Origin: a virus
Lineage: Duplodnaviria > Heunggongvirae > Uroviricota > Caudoviricetes
Reading direction: 5' to 3' (one strand)
Length of the DNA: 35,487 nucleotides
IMG/VR virus record: IMGVR_UViG_2663762908_000009
Shown: piece after piece, positions 5,573 through 34,033 of the stretch
Numbering within the stretch: the stretch's first letter is position 1
Layout: each line of letters starts with the position of its first letter
Made by a program: the position numbers and the translations under genes
The notes under the pieces: generated by a model
What the model was told of the DNA's origin: nothing
Databases searched by the model: none
Seen by the model: the letters and a program-made list of their open reading frames with translations, nothing else

Positions 5573-6730
5573 CAATCCGTTGTTGGTAACAATATTGGTC
5601 TTGGTGAAGTTGCCATGACCTGCACTGATATCTCTGTTGAGCCATCAGGTTATATTGGATTTGTCAGGATTTACATCTCAGCGAAAGGTTATCCATCAGT
5701 AGCGTCTAGTGCCGGGGATAATCTTATTTCTGGTTATATAGTTAGATCAGAAGTGTCAACAAAAAGATATTCCGGTCTATTTGTTGGTTCAGATACAAAA
5801 TCATTGTATTCGTACATTTACAGCCAAAGTTCTGGCCCGCAATGGATACGTCATACCCGCAGAGATGAATTAAGCCGCTTTGGTCAAAATGAATCAACAA
5901 CTCGTATGTATGGTCCAACTGGTGATCGTTTCTTTGAAATCCATACTAACGGGAGTTGGGGGGGTTATGATTCTTCTTCTGGACAATGGTCTCCGTTAGG
6001 TTTAGCCCAGGGCGGTACTGGTGGAAGAACTATCGAGCAAGCACGTGCGAACTTGCGGGTAATGTATGAGCAAAAAGCTGGCCTTGCTAATACTGACCTA
6101 AACACCCTTACCGGTGAATATTCTGGTTTCTATCAACAACCAACGAGCGCTTACGCAACAGAAGAATTAAATTACCCAATCGGTCTGGCGGGCGCTTTAA
6201 TAGTGCTCCAAACGAGAGCCAACACTGCTTCTTCCTGCGTTCAGGTGTACTACCCTTATAATAATCCGGGAATTACTTATAGACGAATATATGAAGGAGG
6301 TAGCGGTACCTGGTCTGAATGGAAGAGAGATGTATCAACAGAAAGGGTTGAAGAGGGAAAAGAAACAACTTACGTATATTCTACGTATTCTTCAGGCGCA
6401 CCACGCTTACAGGTTTCCAAATCTGGTTTGTGGGGTTGTCATAATGGCACTGGCTGGTTGCCATTAGCTGTTGGGCAAGGAGGTACAGGTGCGACAACAG
6501 TAGAAGATGCGCGAAACAACTTAAGTCTTGGCGAAAGTAGCGCAGTTAAATTTAAAAACCTTACTTTAACCGAAGCGCTCGACACGACATTAGGACTGCT
6601 TACAAAAACAGGACGAGACTGGAACACGCAGCATACTGATAACATTAATAAATTTATACCAATTGCAGGCAGTACAAACGGCCCGGCAGGTTCTATGGTT
6701 CTTGGCGGCATTCATGTTCAATTTAGTAAA
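5573..6730 (+). CDS. phage side tail fibre protein, internal/distal fragment
   Basis: Open frame across the whole contig; repeated LAQGGTGGRTIEQARANL / LAVGQGGTGATTVEDARNNLSLG motifs typical of Stf/gp37-type fibres. Confidence 0.5.
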
Positions 6731-6856
6731 NNNNNNNNNNCCCCCTTCTTCTATGAATAACAACTCACTTTTTCATAATAATAAAGTTGTAAAGGTTAGC
6801 CAGAAATGCGCCGATAGCACTTATAAGACAACACAGCAAATAAGGAAAATAACGAT

Positions 6857-8761
6857 ATGTCATGGATTTATCGTATTTCTATGAGAATGAAGTTATTTAT
6901 CGCGTTATTCCCTCTGCTACTTGCGCTGATATGGTTTGCCGGTTCAGGCATGCTCAGCCGCATCGGTACCGAACGACAGATGGACACTATCGGTCAGTTA
7001 ACAACGCTTGCCCGCAGCACGGGAGACGTTGTTCATCAACTGCAACGTGAACGTGGAATGAGCGCCGGTTTTATCGGTGCGCGTGGGCAGCAGTTCCGCG
7101 ATGAAATCCTCGTGCAGCGGAAATTAACTGACGACGCACTGGTAAAGTTAAACAAGGCGTTAGCCCGGACGGATACGAATTTAATACAGGGCAATATTGC
7201 CGCCACACTGAAAATGTTTAAAGACAATATTCAGTCCCTCGACGCCACCCGTAATGCAATAAGCGCGCTGAATATAGAGGCGTCAAAGTCGACGCAGTTC
7301 TATACGCAGACCATCTCCGGGTTGCTGAGTTTCGTTGGTGGTATAGGTCAGTTAAGCGCCTCCGGCCCAATGGTGAATGAGCTGGCAGCCTTCTATAGCC
7401 TGCTGAATTTAAAGGAGCAGGCCGGGATCGAGCGCGCACTGCTCACCAATGTCTTCTCTGTTGATCGCTTTAGCGACGGTCAATTCCGTATGCTCAGTGA
7501 TGTGGTGGGTAAACAAGAAGCCTGGCTGACCGCCACCCGCCGCTTTAGTAGCGAAGCTCAGGCTGCAGAGCTGGATAAAGCCCTTGCGTCGGCCGAAGTC
7601 ACCCGCGCTCTTGAGCTGAGAACGATTGCCTTGAATAAAGCGCAGGAAGGTGGATTTGGCGTTAAACCGACGGACTGGTTTACTGCCCAGACCAAACGCA
7701 TTGAGATACTTCGCCAGGTAGAAACCCAGGCGGCGGATGCCCTGCTCGCACATTCGGCGGCACTGGCCCACAACGCACGTGTTGACTGGCAATCCTTTCT
7801 GGCGATCAGTCTGATTGCCCTGCTCATTGCTATTGTCTTTGCCATGATAGTGGTGCGCAGTATTCAACAACAACTAACCAACACACTGAAAACCATCAAT
7901 GAGATGGACGGCGATTTGACCCGCCGCCTCGATGTACCGGGTAGCGACGAGCTCTCTGCTCTTAATCGCGCCTACAATCAGGCAATCGAAAACATTCAGC
8001 ATATCGTGCAGGAAATTAAATCGGGTGCGCTGATACTCAGTAACGCCAGCAGTGATATTACCGACGGTAACCAGGATTTGGCTCAGCGTACCGATGAGCA
8101 GGCTGCATCCATCGTTGAAACCGCCGCCAGTATGGAACAGATATCGACGGCTATCTCCCAGACGGCCCATAACGCCAGCGAGGCGGAGCGACTGACCCAG
8201 TCGATGGCAAATGATGTCATGGATGCGACCCGCGTTTCCAACGAGGCCAGCCAGAGCATGGCGGCTATCCGTTCGTCCAGCGACAATATTTTCCAGATTG
8301 TGGCGTCAATCGATGAGATCTCGTTTCAAACCAACTTACTGGCGCTAAACGCCGCAGTTGAAGCCGCCCGCGCGGGGGAACTGGGCAAAGGTTTCGCCGT
8401 TGTGGCGGCAGAGGTGCGTCATCTCTCCCAACGCTGTGCCAGAGAGGCCAGCCTGATTCGGGAGTTGGTTAATCAGAATATGAATAACATTGGCGAAGGG
8501 GTGCAACGGGTTTCGGCGTCCGAGGCGGCACTGAAAGCGGCAGCGGATACAACCGGGCGGATGAAGCAATATGTCAGTGATATCGCCCGCGCAGCCAATG
8601 AACAATCGCTTGGCGTAACACAAGTGCATCAGGCACTGAATCAACTGGAGCAGGTCACTCAGCAAAACGCGGCGCTGGTTTCCCAGATGGCAACCGCCAG
8701 TCAAATGCTTGACGCACAGTCGAAATCGATGTCCACGCTTGTTGACCGCTTTGTATCCTGA
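6857..8761 (+). CDS. methyl-accepting chemotaxis protein with periplasmic NIT-type (nitrate/nitrite-sensing) domain
   Basis: N-terminal TM helix, HQLQRERGMSAGFIG motif, second TM, HAMP, MCP signalling domain (EISFQTNLLALNAAVEAARAGELGKGFAVVAAEVRHL); AGGA 10 nt upstream; an ATG at 6884 is an alternative start. Confidence 0.8.
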   Translation: MSWIYRISMRMKLFIALFPLLLALIWFAGSGMLSRIGTERQMDTIGQLTTLARSTGDVVHQLQRERGMSAGFIGARGQQFRDEILVQRKLTDDALVKLNKALARTDTNLIQGNIAATLKMFKDNIQSLDATRNAISALNIEASKSTQFYTQTISGLLSFVGGIGQLSASGPMVNELAAFYSLLNLKEQAGIERALLTNVFSVDRFSDGQFRMLSDVVGKQEAWLTATRRFSSEAQAAELDKALASAEVTRALELRTIALNKAQEGGFGVKPTDWFTAQTKRIEILRQVETQAADALLAHSAALAHNARVDWQSFLAISLIALLIAIVFAMIVVRSIQQQLTNTLKTINEMDGDLTRRLDVPGSDELSALNRAYNQAIENIQHIVQEIKSGALILSNASSDITDGNQDLAQRTDEQAASIVETAASMEQISTAISQTAHNASEAERLTQSMANDVMDATRVSNEASQSMAAIRSSSDNIFQIVASIDEISFQTNLLALNAAVEAARAGELGKGFAVVAAEVRHLSQRCAREASLIRELVNQNMNNIGEGVQRVSASEAALKAAADTTGRMKQYVSDIARAANEQSLGVTQVHQALNQLEQVTQQNAALVSQMATASQMLDAQSKSMSTLVDRFVS

Positions 8762-9361: not shown

Positions 9362-9452
9362 NNNNNNNNNNTACCATTTGACCGGAATGTGAATATTTAT
9401 GGTGGGCTATTGGCAAAAAAATATCTGGAAAGTAGATCGCAGAAAATAAAAA

Positions 9453-9480
9453 AACCTGCTGGTGAGGCAGGTTCTTTTAT
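9453..9480. terminator. hairpin AACCTGC-TGGTGAG-GCAGGTT flanked by A-run and T-run (possible bidirectional terminator)
   Basis: 7-bp stem, T-run downstream on +, A-run upstream. Confidence 0.35.
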
Positions 9481-9797
9481 TTACTACTTTGATGTTAAGT
9501 TACTGATAGTGCAACATGGCATCTCAACGAACGAATTATAACCACCTCTGGACAGTGTTGCAATTAAGATAATGAGATTTATAATCCTGACTGTTGGGAA
9601 GTTGCGCCGGATCGAACCCATTTCAAGTCCTGGCTACCGGACGGGTGGTGCCGCAGGTAGTGCTCTGATCCGGAGTGCAACATGGCGACTCAACAAACGT
9701 AAACCAGTATCGACAGGCAGTGTAAGGTGCTGGTGTTGCGCTCCTTAATAAGGAGAGCGGATGGACACGCTGACACAAAAGTTAACCNNNNNNNNNN

Positions 9798-10141: not shown

Positions 10142-11076
<935 letters not shown>

Positions 11077-11211
11077 NNNNNNNNNNCGCCAGCGCCGCGG
11101 GTGCCTCTCCGGCAGTCAGGCTGTCGCCGGATACTGCATCCGTCAGGCGGCTGATCCCAAGCTGGCCTGCAAGCGCACAAAAGAAAACCCGCGCATAGGC
11201 GNNNNNNNNNN

Positions 11212-11307
11212 GCCTTTTTCTCTGATCCAACGGTTAACAGTTTGTTTAGCCACACCGAGGCATTCAGCCAGTTCTTCGGTGGTCATTTTATTGCGTAATC
11301 TTTTCAT
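11212..11307 (-). CDS. yfeD: YfeD-like DNA-binding protein, first 32 codons (rest lost at N-run)
   Basis: MKRLRNKMTTEELAECLGVAKQTVNRWIREKG; starts 1 nt after the yfeC stop. Confidence 0.5.
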
Positions 11308-11308
11308 A

Positions 11309-11668
11309 TTATTTGCTATCGCGAATCCCTAAGCGTTGTAACAATCCGATAATCCCTTCCCGCAGAAGCAAGGATGTAAACTGTTTTTGTTCAACTGGCG
11401 TCATCTCTTTCGCCAGTGTCACCAGCAATACTTCAAGCGGCGCATCACCAGAAAGGGCAGGCGCTTCTCCCTGACCTTCTGGACGTTCAGCATTGCGAAT
11501 ATATTCACGAACCTGTTCATTGACGTGAACCAGTCGGGCTTTGCCACCCTGGACGCCAGGTTTTGGTGACGTTGTCCAGCCTTCCTTGCGTACCCATTTA
11601 TTAATGGTCTGGCGGCTATAGCCGGTCAGTCTGGCAAGTTCATCTGGTGTCATCCTCTCCTTGAACAT
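11309..11668 (-). CDS. yfeC: YfeC-like putative DNA-binding regulator
   Basis: MFKERMTPDELARLTGYSRQTINKWVRKEGWTTSPKPGVQGGKARLVHV...; AGGGA RBS 7 nt upstream. Confidence 0.6.
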   Translation of the reverse strand: MFKERMTPDELARLTGYSRQTINKWVRKEGWTTSPKPGVQGGKARLVHVNEQVREYIRNAERPEGQGEAPALSGDAPLEVLLVTLAKEMTPVEQKQFTSLLLREGIIGLLQRLGIRDSK

Positions 11669-11827
11669 AACAATTCCCTGAATGTATGTGGGTCTATTAG
11701 TAGTTCATTTTATAACACCACTTTACAGGAAACCGTGACATGAATAACTACTGAATGCGAGCGGTTTTCCAAAATTGTTCATTTGCCTGATTTTTCAGCG
11801 ATTGAAACTACACGTTGCAATTTGCCG

Positions 11828-11856
11828 TTGACACATTCGGGCGGAATTCATATGAT
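11828..11856 (+). promoter_or_regulatory. sigma70 promoter for the tRNA-Ala pair (TTGACA, 17 bp, TATGAT, GC-rich discriminator)
   Basis: Consensus -35, 17-bp spacer, near-consensus -10, then GCCGCCC, about 30 nt before the tRNA 5' end. Confidence 0.6.
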
Positions 11857-11888
11857 GCCGCCCGTCAACTCGACAAGCTTTACGTGAC

Positions 11889-11964
<76 letters not shown>

Positions 11965-12003
11965 AATTTTGCACCCAGCAAACTTGGTACGTAAACGCAT
12001 CGT

Positions 12004-12069
<66 letters not shown>

Positions 12070-12139
12070 NNNNNNNNNNGTCACCTTTTGCGTCCTATAG
12101 TCATAATGTCAAATGAACGCGTTTCGACAGGAAATCATC

Positions 12140-13465
12140 ATGAATAAATATCAGGCAGTTATTATTGGTTTTGGCAAGGCTGGAAAAACATTAGCCGTCA
12201 CGCTGGCAAAAGCAGGTTGGCGTGTGGCTCTCATCGAACAATCAAATGCAATGTATGGCGGGACCTGTATTAATATCGGCTGTATCCCAACCAAAACATT
12301 GGTTCATGACGCACAGCAGCACACAGATTTTGTCCGTGCCATACAGCGTAAAAATGAAGTGGTTAATTTTTTACGTAATAAGAATTTTCATAATCTTGCG
12401 GATATGCCCAATATCGACGTGATCGACGGCCAGGCGGAGTTTATCAATAATCATAGCCTGCGTGTTCATCGGCCTGAGGGAAATCTGGAGATTCATGGCG
12501 AGAAAATTTTTATTAATACCGGTGCACAAGCCGTGGTTCCGCCAATTCCTGGAATTACCACCACACCTGGTGTATATGACAGCACCGGATTACTTAATCT
12601 AAAAGAATTGCCTGGGCATTTAGGTATTTTGGGCGGCGGATATATTGGCGTTGAGTTCGCCTCTATGTTCGCTAATTTTGGCAGCAAAGTAACCATTTTA
12701 GAGTCAGCTTCGCTGTTTTTGCCTCGGGAAGATCGGGATATTGCTGATAATATCGCGACGATTTTACGCGATCAGGGCGTCGATATTATCCTCAATGCCC
12801 ATGTGGAGCGAATCAGTCACCATGAAAATCAAGTGCAAGTGCATAGCGAGCACGCCCAACTGGCGGTGGATGCACTGTTAATAGCTTCCGGTCGTCAACC
12901 GGCTACCGCTTCGTTACATCCAGAAAATGCCGGTATCGCAGTAAACGAGCGCGGGGCAATTGTCGTTGACAAGCGATTACATACCACCGCAGACAATATT
13001 TGGGCGATGGGAGATGTTACCGGCGGGCTGCAATTTACTTACATATCACTGGATGATTACCGCATTGTACGTGATGAGTTACTGGGTGAAGGCAAACGTA
13101 GTACTGATGATCGGAAAAATGTGCCTTATTCCGTATTTATGACACCGCCCCTGTCCAGGGTTGGTATGACAGAAGAACAAGCCAGAGAGAGTGGTGCTGA
13201 TATTCAGGTGGTGACATTGCCTGTAGCTGCAATTCCGCGCGCCAGAGTGATGAACGATACCCGTGGGGTATTAAAAGCGATTGTTGATAATAAAACCCAA
13301 CGTATATTAGGGGCATCACTGCTGTGTGTTGACTCCCACGAGATGATCAATATAGTGAAAATGGTGATGGATGCCGGGCTGCCTTATAGCATATTACGCG
13401 ATCAGATATTTACTCATCCGTCGATGAGCGAATCACTCAATGATCTATTTTCATTAGTCAAATAA
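12140..13465 (+). CDS. rclA: RclA-like pyridine nucleotide-disulfide oxidoreductase (reactive chlorine resistance)
   Basis: MNKYQAVIIGFGKAGKTLAVTLAKAGWRVALIEQSNAMYGGTCINIGCIPTK...; Rossmann GxGxxG and CxxxxC redox motif; AGGAAA RBS. Confidence 0.75.
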   Translation: MNKYQAVIIGFGKAGKTLAVTLAKAGWRVALIEQSNAMYGGTCINIGCIPTKTLVHDAQQHTDFVRAIQRKNEVVNFLRNKNFHNLADMPNIDVIDGQAEFINNHSLRVHRPEGNLEIHGEKIFINTGAQAVVPPIPGITTTPGVYDSTGLLNLKELPGHLGILGGGYIGVEFASMFANFGSKVTILESASLFLPREDRDIADNIATILRDQGVDIILNAHVERISHHENQVQVHSEHAQLAVDALLIASGRQPATASLHPENAGIAVNERGAIVVDKRLHTTADNIWAMGDVTGGLQFTYISLDDYRIVRDELLGEGKRSTDDRKNVPYSVFMTPPLSRVGMTEEQARESGADIQVVTLPVAAIPRARVMNDTRGVLKAIVDNKTQRILGASLLCVDSHEMINIVKMVMDAGLPYSILRDQIFTHPSMSESLNDLFSLVK

Positions 13466-22702: not shown

Positions 22703-23057
22703 NNNNNNNNNNCCTCCAATAAGTAGCGGTAAATGCCACCACCGGAGTTCCTACGCTCATGGGTGGTGACCCGAACGGGGGTAGGAATACCGGCCTTATT
22801 GGAAACCGGCCAGCCCGAAGGCTGCCCCGCCCGGACCACCATTATCTGAAAAGGGCTAAGGTATAAGCACCGCAGCCCGAAAAATGGGTGTGCCTGAGCA
22901 ACGACGTAAAAAAAGACGCACGGCGCGTCTGGTGTCGCCAATAAGTAACTCGGGTTCCTACGCCCGGCAGCCGATTTTGCGGCTGCGGGAAAACTATACC
23001 TGGAAAAGATATCAGGACGCAAGCCAGAAAAAAGGAGATGAGACTGCAAAGCCAGTT

Positions 23058-23318
23058 TCACGCATGGCCTCCTTGCTCGCGGGCAGCAATTCGCGCCGCC
23101 ATCCATGCACTGACCTCCGACTGTACCCAGGCCACATTTTTTCCACCCAGTGATATCTGCTGCGGGAAGGCATCGCGGCTGATAAGGTCGTAGATGGTTG
23201 AACGGGATAGCCCGCAAAGGTGCATCACTTCAGGTAATCGTATGAAGCGCTCCTGCTGAGCCGGAACCGGGAGCACCGGAGCAGCTGGTGCCGGGGTGGA
23301 AACGGAAATACTATTCAT
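23058..23318 (-). CDS. alpA: AlpA-family regulator of a P4-like satellite (copy A)
   Basis: FIRLPEVMHLCGLSRSTIYDLISRDAFPQQISLGGKNVAWVQSEVSAWMAARIA; AGAGAGG RBS. Confidence 0.8.
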   Translation of the reverse strand: MNSISVSTPAPAAPVLPVPAQQERFIRLPEVMHLCGLSRSTIYDLISRDAFPQQISLGGKNVAWVQSEVSAWMAARIAAREQGGHA

Positions 23319-23960
23319 CTGGCTACCTCTCTAATATGTTTACAACAGTCCGGGCAATTCCATCCGGATTCAGGTAGCTCCTTATTATGTTTATATAAGC
23401 GGCTCGCGCATGCTTTATTTATTTGGAGTGAAATGTTGATTTCTCAAAAAATAAAACAGCTAAATACCGTATAAAACGGACAAAAACAAACCATTCCTTT
23501 ATGAAATATAATAAGGAGCATCAAGAATAAAAAAATCTATTACACCAGGCAGGATCACAGTTCAAACCTGAAACAGGCCATGCCATTCCGGGATTTACAT
23601 CATAAGGACGAAGACATCGGAATAATAAAAGAGCTAAAAACGACCAGGGCAAAACAGTTCATCATATGTATTAATTAAGTTACTGACTAAATAAATCAAA
23701 TTATTTTTATCCTTCCGCATGTATCCGCATGTGTTTAATGAGCATCAGATAGATTCATTTTTATGAGTATTTCCCCGAAATGCAACAGGGTGACGGGAGG
23801 TTGAATGTTGAATTATTAAACAGAAATAAGACACCTTTAATTCTATACGTCGAATAGTGCTGAATACTTGTGAAAAGTGGTGAGGGAAAAAAAGCCAGTA
23901 ATAAACTGAAATAAACATCGCGGCTTATATGAGAAAAAAATATAAGTGTAATTTTATTTC

Positions 23961-24064
23961 TGTGAACAGTCATGAACAGTAGATGACCACTACCACTCAA
24001 ACACTACACCCCTCAACCCCATGTATTTACTATCTTTTTACTAAGGTGAACAGTAGTGAATAGT
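23961..24064. repeat. cluster of P4 ori/crr-type iterons (TGTTCACC-like octamers, here as GGTGAACA / TGTGAACA / ATGAACAG)
   Basis: At least four octamer-like repeats within about 100 bp in an AT-rich ORF-free region. Confidence 0.4.
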
Positions 24065-24223
24065 TTGTATTAAAGGAAGGGTGAATATCAGACATGACGC
24101 CTTTCTCTGGCTAGCCAGAACAAGGTCATTGTTCTGTCACTGGCACAATCCCCCTCGGTAGTGCCCTTGTATGAGTACCGGCACAATTGACACGACAACA
24201 AAACACTAATGGTGGATGCATTA

Positions 24224-24316
24224 ATGCGTGCTAATGCATCAGCCAGTTTCACCCCGGCAAAACATAAAGTTTTCCTGGCTCGCCTCAACAGACTTAATGC
24301 AAAAGGAGGGTACTGA
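24224..24316 (+). pseudogene. psu remnant: only the last ~25 codons of a Psu-like gene remain
   Basis: MRANASASFTPAKHKVFLARLNRLNAKGGY-stop matches the C-terminus of the intact Psu-like ORF 25482..26036. Confidence 0.5.
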
Positions 24317-24317
24317 T

Positions 24318-24590
24318 ATGGCCCTGAAATGTCCTGAATGTGGCACGGTCGCTCATGCCAGAACCAGCGCCTATGAAGCCCCATCGGTTAAGCGCTCATG
24401 GTATCAGTGCCAGAATCTTGAATGTTCGTGCACATTTACTGCCCTTGAAAGTGTCGACACGATAATTATGAAACCCCATAAACCAACGGCGCCGGAGCCT
24501 AAATCGAGGAGCGATTCCCTCGAGCGTCAGCCACAGCCCCTGGGCCGCTACGGTTCAGCCTGTACTCTTAAAGACCGTCATGCACAATAA
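24318..24590 (+). CDS. Ogr/Delta-family zinc-finger late transcription activator (copy A)
   Basis: MALKCPECGTVAHARTSAYEAPSVKRSWYQCQNLECSCTF: CxxC...CxxxxC as in P2 Ogr / P4 delta; AGGAGG RBS. Confidence 0.7.
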   Translation: MALKCPECGTVAHARTSAYEAPSVKRSWYQCQNLECSCTFTALESVDTIIMKPHKPTAPEPKSRSDSLERQPQPLGRYGSACTLKDRHAQ

Positions 24591-24609
24591 AATGAGGAGG
24601 AACAACGAT

Positions 24610-24804
24610 ATGGCAGAACAACAATTGACGGAAAAACAGATTCAGGCTGCAACCGGACATGTAGTGACACTCCTCGCAAGGGCAAAGAAACCGCTTCAGG
24701 ATGCGGATTGGCTCATGAATTTGCCTGCAAATGAAATAGCCCGCGAGACGGAAAAACTGACAAAAAGCCTTTCCTCCGACTGGCAGTCCCGAATTATCGA
24801 CCTT
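24610..24804 (+). CDS. hypothetical protein downstream of delta (copy A), 3' end lost at contig edge
   Basis: GAGGAGG RBS; MAEQQLTEKQIQAATGHVVTLLARAKKPLQDADWLMNLPANEIARETEKLTKSLSSDWQSRIIDL...; no family recognised. Confidence 0.5.
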
Positions 24805-24815
24805 NNNNNNNNNNA

Positions 24816-25049: not shown

Positions 25050-25059
25050 NNNNNNNNNN

Positions 25060-25188
25060 GATTTCATTTGCAGGCAAATTCATGAGCCAATCCGCATCCT
25101 GAAGCGGTTTTTTTGCCCTCGCGAGGAGTGTTACTACGTGTCCGGTTGCGGCCTGAATCTGGTTTTCCGTCAATTGTTGTTCTGTCAT
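25060..25188 (-). CDS. hypothetical protein downstream of delta (copy B), 3' end lost at contig edge
   Basis: MTEQQLTENQIQAATGHVVTLLARAKKPLQDADWLMNLPANEI..., near-identical to 24610..24804. Confidence 0.5.
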
Positions 25189-25207
25189 ATTTTTGTTCCT
25201 CCCCAAT

Positions 25208-25480
25208 TTATTGTGCATGACGGTCTTTAAGGGTACAGGCTGAACCGTAGCGGCCCAGTGTATGCGGCTGACGTACAAGAGAATCGCTCTGTGATTCAGG
25301 TTCAGGCGCCACTGGTTTATGGGGCTTCATAATTATCGTGTCCACACTTTCCAGGGCAGTAAATGTGCAGGAGCATTCAAGATTCTGGCACTGATACCAT
25401 GAGCGTTTAACCGATGGAGCTTCATAGGCGCTGGTTCTGGCGTGTGCGACCGTGCCACATTCAGGACATTTCAGGGCCAT
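25208..25480 (-). CDS. Ogr/Delta-family zinc-finger late transcription activator (copy B)
   Basis: Same CxxC...CxxxxC protein as copy A with a few substitutions. Confidence 0.7.
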   Translation of the reverse strand: MALKCPECGTVAHARTSAYEAPSVKRSWYQCQNLECSCTFTALESVDTIIMKPHKPVAPEPESQSDSLVRQPHTLGRYGSACTLKDRHAQ

Positions 25481-25481
25481 A

Positions 25482-26036
25482 TCAGTCCCCTCCTTTTTCA
25501 TTAAGCCTGTTGAGGCGGGCCAGAAAAACTTTATGTTTTGCCGGGGTGAAAATGGCTGAAGCATCAGCTCGCATTGATGCATCCACCGTTAATCCGGTTT
25601 CGTCGATAACGCTCTTATATGCTGCTGAAATTACAGGAGTACGGATTTCGGTTTGTCGGACTACAGCGGTGCGTAATATTTTCATTGCCGCCTCAAGCCC
25701 GTATGGTGCGCAAAGAAAAGGAGCCAGAGCGTCAGTGAGTGCATTACCATGCTCGCTCATGAAGTTTTCAGTTGCGCCTGTAACACAGCTTTCCAGCACA
25801 ATCTGGTGAGCATAAAGACCGTCCCTGGCGGCGCAGTTAATCTGCCATTCGAGGAGAGCAATACGCTCACGAAGATTCTCAAGCTGGCTGGCATATGCTG
25901 CCGGTTTTTCTTCAGTATCCAGCAGAGCCGCCAGACGAAGTTGGCTGGTACTTTGCACATTACGTAGTGTCAGCCAGCTTTTTATCGCCGCGCGATAGTT
26001 GTTGAGAGCTTCCTTAGTAATGTTTCCAGGATTCAT
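25482..26036 (-). CDS. Psu-like protein (P4 polarity suppression / capsid decoration homologue)
   Basis: 184 aa; position between sid-like and delta-like genes; ...HGNALTDALAPFL... resembles P4 Psu. Confidence 0.5.
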   Translation of the reverse strand: MNPGNITKEALNNYRAAIKSWLTLRNVQSTSQLRLAALLDTEEKPAAYASQLENLRERIALLEWQINCAARDGLYAHQIVLESCVTGATENFMSEHGNALTDALAPFLCAPYGLEAAMKILRTAVVRQTEIRTPVISAAYKSVIDETGLTVDASMRADASAIFTPAKHKVFLARLNRLNEKGGD

Positions 26037-26785
26037 CCTTTCTCTTCCCCTTTAACCATGTCACGCTGTTTAAGCATCCGGGAACGCGCTGCAGGGCTGG
26101 GTGATTGCCTGGCATCCTGTAGGGCTTTATCGTCCGCATAAATGCTAATCCCCGGCAGGGCAATAACATCCGTTGAAGATACGTTACAGGACAGTGCCGG
26201 AGCGGTGAGTTGCTCGCTGATAAATTGCTTCAGCACACTTTCGGGGTCGTTTACGGTATGAACTACGCCGATAACGGAAGAAGCGCTTCGCCCCAGAGTC
26301 ATTTTCAGCAATCCAAGGATCTGAATAAGTTTCTGGCCGTGTTCCTTCATAAACTCATTCCAGAGCCACTCTGCATGAGTTTCAATCAGCCGGTTATGTT
26401 CGCTGATGTAGCGGTTTGCAGCATCCGCAGTTTTCCAGGGCAGGAATTCTTTTTCTGCGGCGTGAGCTTCAAGCAAATCTTCGAACTCATCAAGTGTTTC
26501 GCGTCCCAGGGCGATTTCTGCACGCAGTTTTTTCATTCGTGGCGTCATATTCCCCTGATTCTCACGAAACAGGTTTCGCCATTCATCATTAAGCGCCTGC
26601 GTCTCCGTTTTTGTATCTTCCTGACGTTTACGGATAGTTTCAGTCATTGCAGCGGCTTCAGTTTGTATTCGCCGTTCTTCCTGCCAGACAGCTTTTGCTG
26701 CTTTAACTTTTTCTACCGCTTCGCGAATTTTCGGTGGGAGGGAGGGTGTAATGTTTGCATCAGGGATCTGGTTAACAGTTGTCAT
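26033..26785 (-). CDS. Sid-like protein (P4 capsid size determination homologue)
   Basis: About 250-aa alpha/coiled-coil-rich ORF overlapping the psu start by 4 nt; GGAG RBS before ATG 26785 (the longer ORF to 26818 starts at TTG). Confidence 0.45.
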   Translation of the reverse strand: MTTVNQIPDANITPSLPPKIREAVEKVKAAKAVWQEERRIQTEAAAMTETIRKRQEDTKTETQALNDEWRNLFRENQGNMTPRMKKLRAEIALGRETLDEFEDLLEAHAAEKEFLPWKTADAANRYISEHNRLIETHAEWLWNEFMKEHGQKLIQILGLLKMTLGRSASSVIGVVHTVNDPESVLKQFISEQLTAPALSCNVSSTDVIALPGISIYADDKALQDARQSPSPAARSRMLKQRDMVKGEEKG

Positions 26786-26940
26786 GGCTGCTCCGGTAGT
26801 GTTTTGTTGTTGTGTCAATTGTGCCGGTGCCCATACAAGCGCACTACCGATGAGGATTGTGCCAGTGACTGAACAATGACCTTGTTCTGGCTAGCCAGAG
26901 AAAGGTGTCATGTCTGAGCTTCACCCTTCCTTTAATACAT

Positions 26941-27044
26941 ACTATTCACTACTGTTCACTTTCATAAAAGAATAGTAAATACATGTGGTTAAGGAGTGCA
27001 GGGTTTAAATAAAAGTGGTCATCTACTGTTCATGACTGTTCACA
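26941..27044. repeat. cluster of P4 ori/crr-type iterons (ACTGTTCAC / ACTGTTCAT), copy B
   Basis: Mirror image of the copy A cluster, same place between sid and alpA. Confidence 0.4.
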
Positions 27045-27688
27045 GAGATAAATTTAACTTATATTTGTTTTTCATATAAATCGCGATATTTATTTCAGTT
27101 TATTACTGGATTTTTATTCCTCACCACTATTCACACGTATTCAACACTATTCAATATACAGTATAAAACGTGTCTTATGTCTGTTTAAAAATTCAACACT
27201 TAACCTCCCTACACTCGGTTGCATTTCAGGAAAATATCCATAAAAATGAATCTGTCTGATGCTCATTAAACACATCCGGATAAATTCGGAAGGATGCGGG
27301 TAATTTAATTTTTTTAGCCATTAACTTAATTAATACATATGATGAACTGTTTTTTATGAACGTTTTTTGGCCCTTTTATTATTCCGGCGCTGTTTTCATC
27401 CTTATGATGTAACGCCCGGAATGATATGGTCTGGTACAGACTTGAGCGGCGATCCTGCCTGGTGTAATAGACTTTTTTATTCTTGAAGCTCCTTATTATA
27501 TTCCATGAAGGAATGATTTGTTTTTGTCCGTTTTATCCGGTTTTTAGCTGTTTTATTTTTTGAGAAGTCAATATTTCTCTCTAATTAAATAAAGCATGCG
27601 CGAGCCGCTTATATGAACATAATAAGGAACTACCTGAATCCGGATGGAATTGTCCGGACTACTGAAAACATATTAGAGAGGTAGCGAA

Positions 27689-27949
27689 ATGCATACTATT
27701 TCCGTTTCCACCCCAGCACCAGCTGCTCCGGTGCTCCCGATTCCGACTGAGCAGGAGCGCTTCATACGATTACCTGAAGTGATGCACCTTTGCGGGCTAT
27801 CCCGTTCAACCATCTACGACCTTATCAGCCGTGATGCCTTCCCGCAGCAGATCTCCCTGGGTGGAAAAAATGTTGCCTGGGTACAGTCGGAGGTCAATGC
27901 ATGGATGGCGGCGCGAATTGCAGCCCGCGAGCAAGGAGACCATGCGTGA
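27689..27949 (+). CDS. alpA: AlpA-family regulator of a P4-like satellite (copy B)
   Basis: MHTISVSTPAPAAPVLPIPTEQERFIRLPEVMHLCGLSRSTIYDLISRDAFPQQISLGGKNVAWVQSEV. Confidence 0.8.
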   Translation: MHTISVSTPAPAAPVLPIPTEQERFIRLPEVMHLCGLSRSTIYDLISRDAFPQQISLGGKNVAWVQSEVNAWMAARIAAREQGDHA

Positions 27950-28453
27950 ATCTGGCTTTGCAGTCTCATCTCTTTTTTTGTGGCTTGCGTCCTGGCAAGC
28001 TTTCCAGTTATAGTTTTTCTGCTGCCGCAAAATCGGCAGCCGGGATTTGCAGCCCGTGTAACTTATTGGCGACACAGCACGCGTCGAGCGTGTTTTTTTA
28101 TGTCGTTGCTCAGGCACACCTATTTTTCGGGCTGTGGTGCTTACACCGTGGCTCCTGTCAGATAATGGTGGTCCGGGCGGGGCAGCCTTCGGGCTGGCCG
28201 GTTTCCAATAAGGCCGGTACTGCAAACCCCGTCCGGGCCATCACCCATGAGATTTGCAGCTCTGGTGGTGGCAATAACCGCTACTTATTGGAGATTGCCC
28301 TTATGGCTACGATCCTCGCCCCATCACATCCTCAATTTATATTTGTTTTTGCCGCCGTTCNNNNNNNNNNTAAAAATTCGCTTTTTTAGCGCAATGTCAC
28401 TGACCTTAGTTGAACATTGTTTTTTAACGGATAGCGGGTTTTTAACATCTTAA

Positions 28454-28487: not shown

Positions 28488-28678
28488 TATGAACGCCATC
28501 ACCATTTTCCCCTCGATTATAAAACTTGAGTTATTCAGTAGTCTCCCCTCTTGCAACTCACACCCAAAACTGCCTAACGAAAAGTTATTAATTTTCAATC
28601 ATATTGCTATCAGTATTTACATTTTTTCGCTGTGCTAGAAAGGGCGCATTTATGTTAGCTCGTTCAGGGAAGGTAAGC

Positions 28679-34033
<5,355 letters not shown>

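Follow-up and report, generated by a model that had tools for sequence, protein, structure and literature searches.

More than 30% of Enterobacterales genomes harbor P4-like satellites (PMC8628076). The module with which these satellites hijack capsids has been described so far as exactly two paralogues, Sid and Psu, which diverged long ago (PMC7552001, PMC8628076). The alpha6 helix of P4 Sid supplies most of the contacts with the sir loop of the capsid protein, and D206 is a sir site in the P2 capsid protein gpN (PMC7552001). In Psu, the C-terminal helix carries the Rho-contacting residues P171-Q183 (PMC11718236). Some satellites of a Serratia/Yersinia clade lack psu and have a lone Sid (PMC8628076), and de Sousa and Rocha speculate that one paralogue might by itself suffice to capture the helper capsid (PMC8628076). 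The hotspot of P4 is the psu-to-int stretch, which lies directly next to cos (Rousset et al., PMC9122126).

Here we analyzed a 35,487-nucleotide stretch of viral DNA (Caudoviricetes; IMG/VR record IMGVR_UViG_2663762908_000009), referred to below as the window. We use the label ORF-X for the open reading frame directly 3' of delta in both P4-like contigs of the window. An earlier reading of these letters, made without database searches, placed this frame in the region past the late operon where P4-like satellites carry anti-phage cargo, and so implied that it starts the cargo. Our best reading is instead that ORF-X represents a third, undescribed clade of the Sid/Psu superfamily, for which we infer an action on helper capsids. 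Within the searchable library of literature, no paper describing a third Sid/Psu paralogue or this clade was found.

Two truncated copies of ORF-X in a fragmented assembly

The window is no single continuous sequence and consists of 29 small contigs joined by 28 N10 runs. Two of these contigs carry ORF-X (Table 1). As the sequence-only reading had noted, the frame is present after delta in both copies, and both copies are cut off at the contig ends. Each starts 19 nt 3' of delta and runs into an N10 gap. Copy A begins with an ATG 19 nt past the delta stop, and all 65 codons up to the gap are open. The GAGGAGG ribosome-binding site reported for both copies precedes only copy A; copy B has GGGGAGG. 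Of the strong translation proposed from the letters, what the sequence shows is this consensus Shine-Dalgarno motif. Of the 129 nt that the copies have in common, 8 positions differ, and just 2 of these change an amino acid.

Each copy has close relatives in complete E. coli genomes, with copy A 94-100% identical to residues 1-65 of the full-length genes and copy B differing from the gene of E. coli S21 (L002) at 1 nt in 129. Contigs A and B begin at one homologous point and both stop within ORF-X. Because diverged copies with near-identical flanks break short-read assembly at repeats, the truncation is a technical one. The remaining 205 codons of ORF-X, the cos site, the hotspot cargo and the integrase were found nowhere else in the window, and the only other P4-like piece in it is a 192-bp contig (128-319). 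Thus, the earlier statement that the cargo itself lies outside the window was borne out. Beyond the gaps we expect ORF-X to continue as an 813-bp frame, followed by a terminator (GCCCGGC...GCCGGGTTTTTT) and by a cos site, GGCGTGGCGGGGCTACGAG, about 190 nt past the stop, and then by cargo and an integrase. Going by the nearest relatives, this cargo might be Gabija-like in copy A and SIR2-HerA-like in copy B, although cargo does not lend itself to prediction.

Table 1. Coordinates of the ORF-X region in the window, and cargo found past cos in related loci
Sequence	Feature	Coordinates	Strand	Remarks
Window	Contig A	22713-24804		ORF-X copy A at its 3' end
Window	Contig B	25060-28360		ORF-X copy B at its start
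Window	ORF-X copy A	24610..24804	+	Codons 1-65 of about 270; chiefly the N-terminal segment specific to the family
Window	ORF-X copy B	25060..25188 (25188->25060)	-	First 43 codons
Window	N10 scaffold gap	24805..24814	.	Cuts copy A
Window	N10 scaffold gap	25050..25059	.	Cuts copy B
Window	Shine-Dalgarno GAGGAGG, copy A	24594..24600	+	9-nt spacer to ATG at 24610
Window	delta, copy A (single Ogr/Delta zinc finger, 90 aa)	24318..24590	+	Matches annotated Ogr/Delta-like gene of L001
Window	delta, copy B	25208..25483	-	PF04606, E 2e-16
Window	psu C-terminus remnant, 35 codons	24209..24316	+	Contig A; own ATG; ends just upstream of delta start
Window	psu, copy B (184 aa)	25482..26036	-	PF07455, E 2e-33
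Window	Sid-type gene, copy B (261 aa)	26033..26818	-	First late-operon gene; phrog_6165, E 2e-88; ORF-X paralogue
Window	Two TGT-N12-ACA dyads 38 bp apart, contig A	24130..24185	+	
Window	Two TGT-N12-ACA dyads 38 bp apart, contig B	26820..26875	-	
Window	C4 RNA / a1/b1 sites / isrK matches	22759-22846, 22909-22999	-	Rfam
Window	C4 RNA / a1/b1 sites / isrK matches	28008-28098, 28161-28248	+	Rfam
L001	Retron-type reverse transcriptase			Cargo past cos
L002	SIR2-HerA			Cargo past cos
L003, L005	DRT3a/b			Cargo past cos
L004 (E. coli MB06172)	AAA ATPase + DUF3226 pair	10522-12230		Cargo past cos
L006	HamA + helicase (Hachiman)			Cargo past cos
L007 (Pantoea ananatis)	Ser/Thr kinase + PP2C phosphatase	10288-11782		Cargo past cos
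Pseudescherichia	UvrD-type helicase + unknown protein			Cargo past cos
L022 (Enterobacter)	Gabija			Cargo past cos

Distribution and conservation of the full-length gene

A megablast search of 5,426 complete E. coli genomes found the psu-delta part of the region in 382-565 genomes, and ORF-X was also present in only 7-8 of those approximately 565. In E. coli the complete gene measures 813 bp, starts 19 nt after delta and encodes a 270-residue "hypothetical protein". Across complete genomes the full-length protein has 270-274 residues and occurs in Escherichia, Enterobacter, Citrobacter, Klebsiella, Pantoea, Erwinia and Pseudescherichia. A protein search returned 44 clusters (Enterobacter, Citrobacter, Klebsiella, Pantoea, Cronobacter and Pseudescherichia), and a scan of one genome per species added 23 further loci.

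Among 25 ORF-X sequences, with identities down to 57%, 83 alignment columns are invariant. The dN/dS ratio ranges from 0.16 to 0.47 among the E. coli copies and is 0.2 against Pseudescherichia, at a dS of about 1.3. Judged from these substitution patterns, ORF-X is a real gene under purifying selection and no chance reading frame.

The lack of an assignment for this gene, as reported from the letters alone, held up in the databases. The named clusters are all annotated as hypothetical except P0009, and a search of the full-length protein against Pfam, NCBIfam and PADLOC gave nothing significant (best PADLOC match, E 0.03). P0009 is a 403-residue protein of Enterobacter bugandensis annotated as a tyrosine recombinase; it aligns to 73% of ORF-X with 87% identity and has integrase N-terminal domains as well, so that it is apparently either an ORF-X/integrase fusion or a mis-call. 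Separately, a C-terminal ORF-X fragment (6001-6303) with a Fels-2-type cos at about 6496 was present in a metagenome bin labelled Chloroflexia (L043, contig CAWJKF010000013.1), most likely through mis-binning or contamination with enterobacterial DNA.

Position of ORF-X between delta and cos

In both P4-like contigs of the window, two TGT-N12-ACA dyads precede the late genes, a layout known from P2 and P4 late promoters, which we read as a delta/Ogr-activated, Psid-like late promoter. In each full-length locus with an upstream flank, delta and ORF-X share a strand, and ORF-X lies 10-20 nt 3' of delta. In L002, the stretch from the start of sid to the cargo has a single intrinsic terminator on the plus strand, 22 nt past the ORF-X stop (AAGCCCGGCCAGTGCCGGGTTTTTT). 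About 190 nt past this stop is a conserved block ending in GGCGTGGCGGGGCTACGAG, which aligns with the P4 cos region by BLAST. The cohesive end of P4 is GGCGAGGCGGGGAAAGCAC; this exact 19-mer is absent from the ORF-X loci, and the variant cos was found by BLAST with the P4 cos region. In about 26 of 29 loci, 186-204 nt separate the end of ORF-X from cos downstream, and L023 and L024 have a different cos type at about the same distance.

The ORF-X loci lose their resemblance to one another directly after cos. Past this point the loci listed in Table 1 carry the cargo given there, and the integrase comes after the cargo in each of them. The AAA ATPase and DUF3226 pair of L004 appears PARIS-like by its domain content. 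ORF-X remains 91-100% identical across E. coli and Enterobacter loci with differing cargo (retron, SIR2-HerA, DRT3, AAA+DUF3226, Hachiman and Gabija), and at least eight cargo sets adjoin an unchanged ORF-X.

Lying as it does before cos, ORF-X closes the late operon and does not belong to the cargo. In P4 the order is sid-delta-psu-cos, and ORF-X occupies the slot of P4 psu. We consider it very probable that ORF-X is a late-operon gene of the Sid/Psu superfamily, that it is not part of the hotspot, and that assembly alone accounts for its being cut short in the window. The expectation of variable defence cargo between this gene and the integrase was confirmed in complete relatives, but the implication that ORF-X is itself the first anti-phage cargo gene was not supported: the gene lies upstream of both terminator and cos, stays constant while the cargo changes, and is a homologue of Sid. 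The sequence-only reading had named, as the finding that would speak against it, a conserved core satellite gene followed directly by the integrase. ORF-X is indeed a lineage-conserved late gene of the satellite, but cargo follows and the integrase is not directly next to it. The frame at 24610-24804 should not be counted as candidate defence cargo. Where a survey takes "sid, delta, psu" as its definition of a satellite, ORF-X may be mislabelled or the boundary of the defence hotspot misplaced.

ORF-X is homologous to Sid-type proteins

Against PHROGs, ORF-X matched the Sid-type family phrog_6165 (E 1e-20). By BLASTP it is 30% identical to the Sid-type protein of contig B over 185 residues (E 2e-16), and it has weak similarity to both P4 Sid (E 0.003) and P4 Psu (E 8e-4). 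Comparison of alignments with hhalign gave a probability of 99.9% for the ORF-X family against Sid-type proteins (E 3.8e-32, 223 columns), and 7% against Psu-type proteins, for which the profile is thin (four sequences). Sid-type and Psu-type alignments matched each other at 96.8% (E 2e-10), which agrees with their being old paralogues. Among Psu profiles, PF07455 gave no match to ORF-X at E<=1 and phrog_6366 gave E 0.06; "weak" PF07455 flags on ORF-X proteins in precomputed databases are the sole pointer toward a Psu profile.

When 1.84 billion representative proteins were searched exhaustively with an HMM, only 46 matches were returned. All eight of the full-length matches outside the ORF-X family that were tested belong to phrog_6165, and those non-ORF-X matches that were traced either occupy the usual sid position (sid-psu-delta) or stand by themselves in another primase island. 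P4 Sid (7jw1) is the only PDB sequence match to ORF-X and also the top Foldseek match. Structure searches of the Foldseek type do not separate Sid from generic coiled coils, and we did not rely on them. The structure modelling used database proteins, of which P0001 is 97% identical to ORF-X. The AlphaFold model has a hairpin of two helices (H56-113 and H120-204) with pLDDT above 90, while the 205-218 linker and the last 30 residues are of low confidence. Automated surveys may have counted members of this clade as sid or psu.

ORF-X differs from Sid and Psu at both termini

ORF-X has profile homology to P4 Sid (PDB 7JW1; phrog_6165) over about 220 residues and, like it, is encoded by a P4-like satellite in a late operon that delta activates. 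The predicted structure would also have in common with Sid a long two-helix stem and a dimerisation ("knot") region followed by a flexible linker. However, ORF-X is just 15-30% identical to Sid-type proteins, and its position differs: sid is the first late gene, upstream of delta, while ORF-X is the last, directly downstream of delta. At its N-terminus ORF-X has an insertion of about 40 residues (35-45 in the alignment), which is absent from all Sid-type proteins aligned. This insertion, with invariant Pro28, Trp34, Leu35 and Pro39, is essentially the part of the protein that lies within the window.

The C-termini also diverge. In the alignment, Sid-type proteins go on for 20-50 residues after an invariant Asp and carry a "(S/T)PA..." helix there, whereas all ORF-X proteins end 7-11 residues past that Asp with a basic tail, DRxKRKxF, in place of alpha6. 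A C-terminal helix of the Sid alpha6 type is absent from all ORF-X proteins aligned. Without alpha6, capsid binding by ORF-X would need another surface, and this is the main argument against a plain Sid identity; it keeps alive the alternatives of a Psu-like Rho antagonist and of an interfering protein. The last 30 residues of ORF-X, modelled as disordered, are strongly conserved (P241, F244, R245, D246, V248, S250, G253, P256, G259, D263 and F270), which suggests that this segment folds on a partner.

Psu (PF07455; PDB 3RX6) belongs to the same superfamily, and ORF-X takes the slot that psu has in P4, between delta and cos. Compared with Psu, ORF-X has a longer predicted stem, of Sid length, and its similarity to Psu profiles is negligible. 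It also lacks the "TPA" C-terminal helix that contacts Rho in Psu (PMC11718236), since in the alignment ORF-X ends before the equivalent of Psu alpha7. The lone Sid of the psu-less satellites (PMC8628076) is likewise a single protein of the Sid/Psu type, but it falls in the Sid subtree and sits in the sid slot, whereas ORF-X forms a separate clade, follows delta and has other termini. Lastly, the P4-like defence hotspot (PMC9122126) directly adjoins ORF-X, with retron, SIR2-HerA, DRT3, Hachiman, Gabija and PARIS-like cargo right past cos; ORF-X differs from that cargo in being on the operon side of cos, conserved, and without a match to any defence model.

ORF-X is often the only Sid/Psu-type gene of its satellite

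We surveyed the gene content of 33 ORF-X loci. About 15, mostly from Pantoea and Pseudescherichia, have only delta and ORF-X, so that ORF-X is their sole Sid/Psu-type gene. Another 8 have sid, delta and ORF-X with psu absent or reduced to a stub, and 6 (contig B among them) have sid, psu, delta and ORF-X. None of the 33 loci has psu without sid. In contig A too ORF-X is the only such gene, as sid is missing and psu is down to its last 35 codons; psu is also truncated in L001, L006 and L022. Misassembly of contig A was considered as a cause of the missing genes and rejected, as L022 of Enterobacter has the same layout, with 98% identity along the full 2,092 bp of the contig. Because this layout is genuine, ORF-X can be the sole Sid/Psu-type gene of a satellite, and psu tends to decay beside it. 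psu is lost repeatedly, and each time a piece beside delta is left, which may preserve translational coupling to delta.

Co-inheritance of the delta tail, ORF-X and cos

Related E. coli satellites without ORF-X have the order sid-psu-delta-terminator-cos and another cos (GGCGGGCGGGGCTGCG...). Homology between these and the ORF-X satellites breaks inside delta, at about codon 52 (L012, delta at 7121-7393). The zinc-finger half of delta is 100% identical to that of L012, the tail only 32%. In contrast, the delta tails of ORF-X satellites in E. coli share 77% identity with the Pantoea tails. The comparison places a recombination breakpoint inside delta, and the break together with the tail identities indicates that the delta tail, ORF-X, terminator and cos travel as one block, across genera.

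The cos linked to ORF-X, GGCGTGGCGGGGCTACGAG, has 1 mismatch to the cos of Fels-2, SopE-phi and Klebsiella P2-like phages and 5 to that of P2 and P4. The capsid proteins of Fels-2 and P2 are 58% identical, and Fels-2 has Lys at the position of the sir residue D206 of P2 gpN. These sequence comparisons suggest that the block may match the satellite to Fels-2-type helpers, in which case helper specificity may be swapped as a compact module of delta tail, ORF-X and cos. This link does have exceptions. In L023 (Enterobacter intestinihominis) and L024 (Pseudocitrobacter vendiensis), at 6810-7050, ORF-X and the terminator are followed by another cos type (GGCGGGCGGGGC...), indicating recombination between terminator and cos and weakening a strict tie of ORF-X to the Fels-2-type cos.

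A proposed role on the helper capsid

On balance, we favor a role for ORF-X as an external scaffold or brace that acts on the helper capsid. The argument for this role is drawn from ancestry, late co-expression, conserved termini of the kind that bind a partner, and the fact that ORF-X stands alone in many satellites. Such a role would fit the speculation of de Sousa and Rocha on satellites with one paralogue (PMC8628076). Transcription would proceed from the late promoter through sid and psu (where present), delta and ORF-X to the terminator ahead of cos, and ORF-X would be made late, alongside the helper structural proteins. As modelled, the product would be a divergent Sid-type protein in which two parts of the Sid/Psu fold are kept, the "stem" (a helical hairpin) and the dimerisation region. 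We infer that it would bind the outside of the helper capsid shell and fit the capsid to the small satellite genome, by analogy with the job done in P4 by Sid, or by Sid plus Psu, and judging from the cos comparison it may be tuned to P2-like helpers of the Fels-2 type. Several features count against a capsid role: the missing alpha6, a position in the psu slot and not the sid slot, the low-confidence C-terminus and linker, and the redundancy, left without explanation, in the 6 loci where intact sid and psu stand beside ORF-X.

We hold more tentatively that ORF-X is a functionally distinct third branch, which would remodel or stabilise Fels-2-type capsids alone through its basic tail and/or its N-terminal insertion. 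If so, the classical sid and psu pair would be unnecessary in most ORF-X satellites, the capsid would be hijacked by one protein, and ORF-X might be close to the undivided Sid/Psu ancestor. A conserved and often lone third clade would mean that P4-like satellites have more than one capsid-hijack design.

Other functions have to be weighed against a capsid role. ORF-X could be mainly a Rho inhibitor similar to Psu, possibly also decorating the mature capsid. Its slot after delta and before cos equals that of P4 psu, the sid-delta-ORF-X order of 8 loci parallels sid-delta-psu in P4, psu is the gene most often lost or truncated where ORF-X is present (and is never found without sid), and there is the weak BLASTP similarity to P4 Psu (E 8e-4). 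However, we regard this function as unlikely, given the 7% hhalign score against Psu-type proteins, the absence of a Pfam Psu match at E<=1 and the marginal phrog_6366 value (E 0.06), a predicted stem of Sid length instead of the shorter Psu length, and the lack of the C-terminal helix with the Rho-contacting residues P171-Q183 (PMC11718236). Somewhat more doubtful still is a role in interference, in which ORF-X would poison the Sid cages of competing satellites or disturb assembly of the helper capsid. A protein that has kept the stem and knot region and lost alpha6 could act in this way, the source genome has two satellites together, and in 6 loci ORF-X accompanies intact sid and psu; but in about 15 loci it is the sole Sid/Psu-type gene, with nothing of its own to protect, its conserved C-terminal tail and N-terminal insertion favor a partner-binding function of its own, and it is co-inherited with cos and the delta tail.

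The original proposal, that ORF-X is the first gene of variable anti-phage cargo in the P4 hotspot, draws on its place next to the hotspot, its presence in just 7-8 of about 565 E. coli genomes with the psu-delta region, and the lack of an assigned function in databases. It has become very improbable, since ORF-X is a Sid homologue without a PADLOC match, lies upstream of the terminator and of cos, beyond which the hotspot begins (PMC9122126), and is constant beside at least eight cargo sets. Least probable of all is that ORF-X is a decaying, functionless duplicate of sid. One pseudogenised copy (L039) and several fragments do exist, but purifying selection across genera (omega 0.2 at a dS of about 1.3), the 83 invariant columns in 25 sequences down to 57% identity, a constant length and a conserved ribosome-binding site rule out such decay.

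Additional features of the window

Both P4-like contigs contain matches above the gathering score to the Rfam families for C4 antisense RNA, its a1/b1 target sites and isrK (Table 1). The P4 immunity RNA is a member of the Rfam C4 family. Between the two satellite pieces, the scaffold has a 235-bp contig (24815-25049) with the minus-strand start of an unrelated frame (MKHTELRAAVLDALEKHDTGATLFDGRPAVF...), which presumably resembles a lambdoid tail gene. Its placement between the two copies of ORF-X is a matter of scaffold order, not biology. Elsewhere in the window, and unrelated to ORF-X, we found matches to the OrzO-P antitoxin RNA and to two tRNAs at 9448-9521 (-), 11889-11961 (+) and 12010-12069 (+). 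Additionally, an unrelated frame of 1809 codons at 28604-34033 (+) contains many repeated units and stops about 30 nt short of the next scaffold gap.
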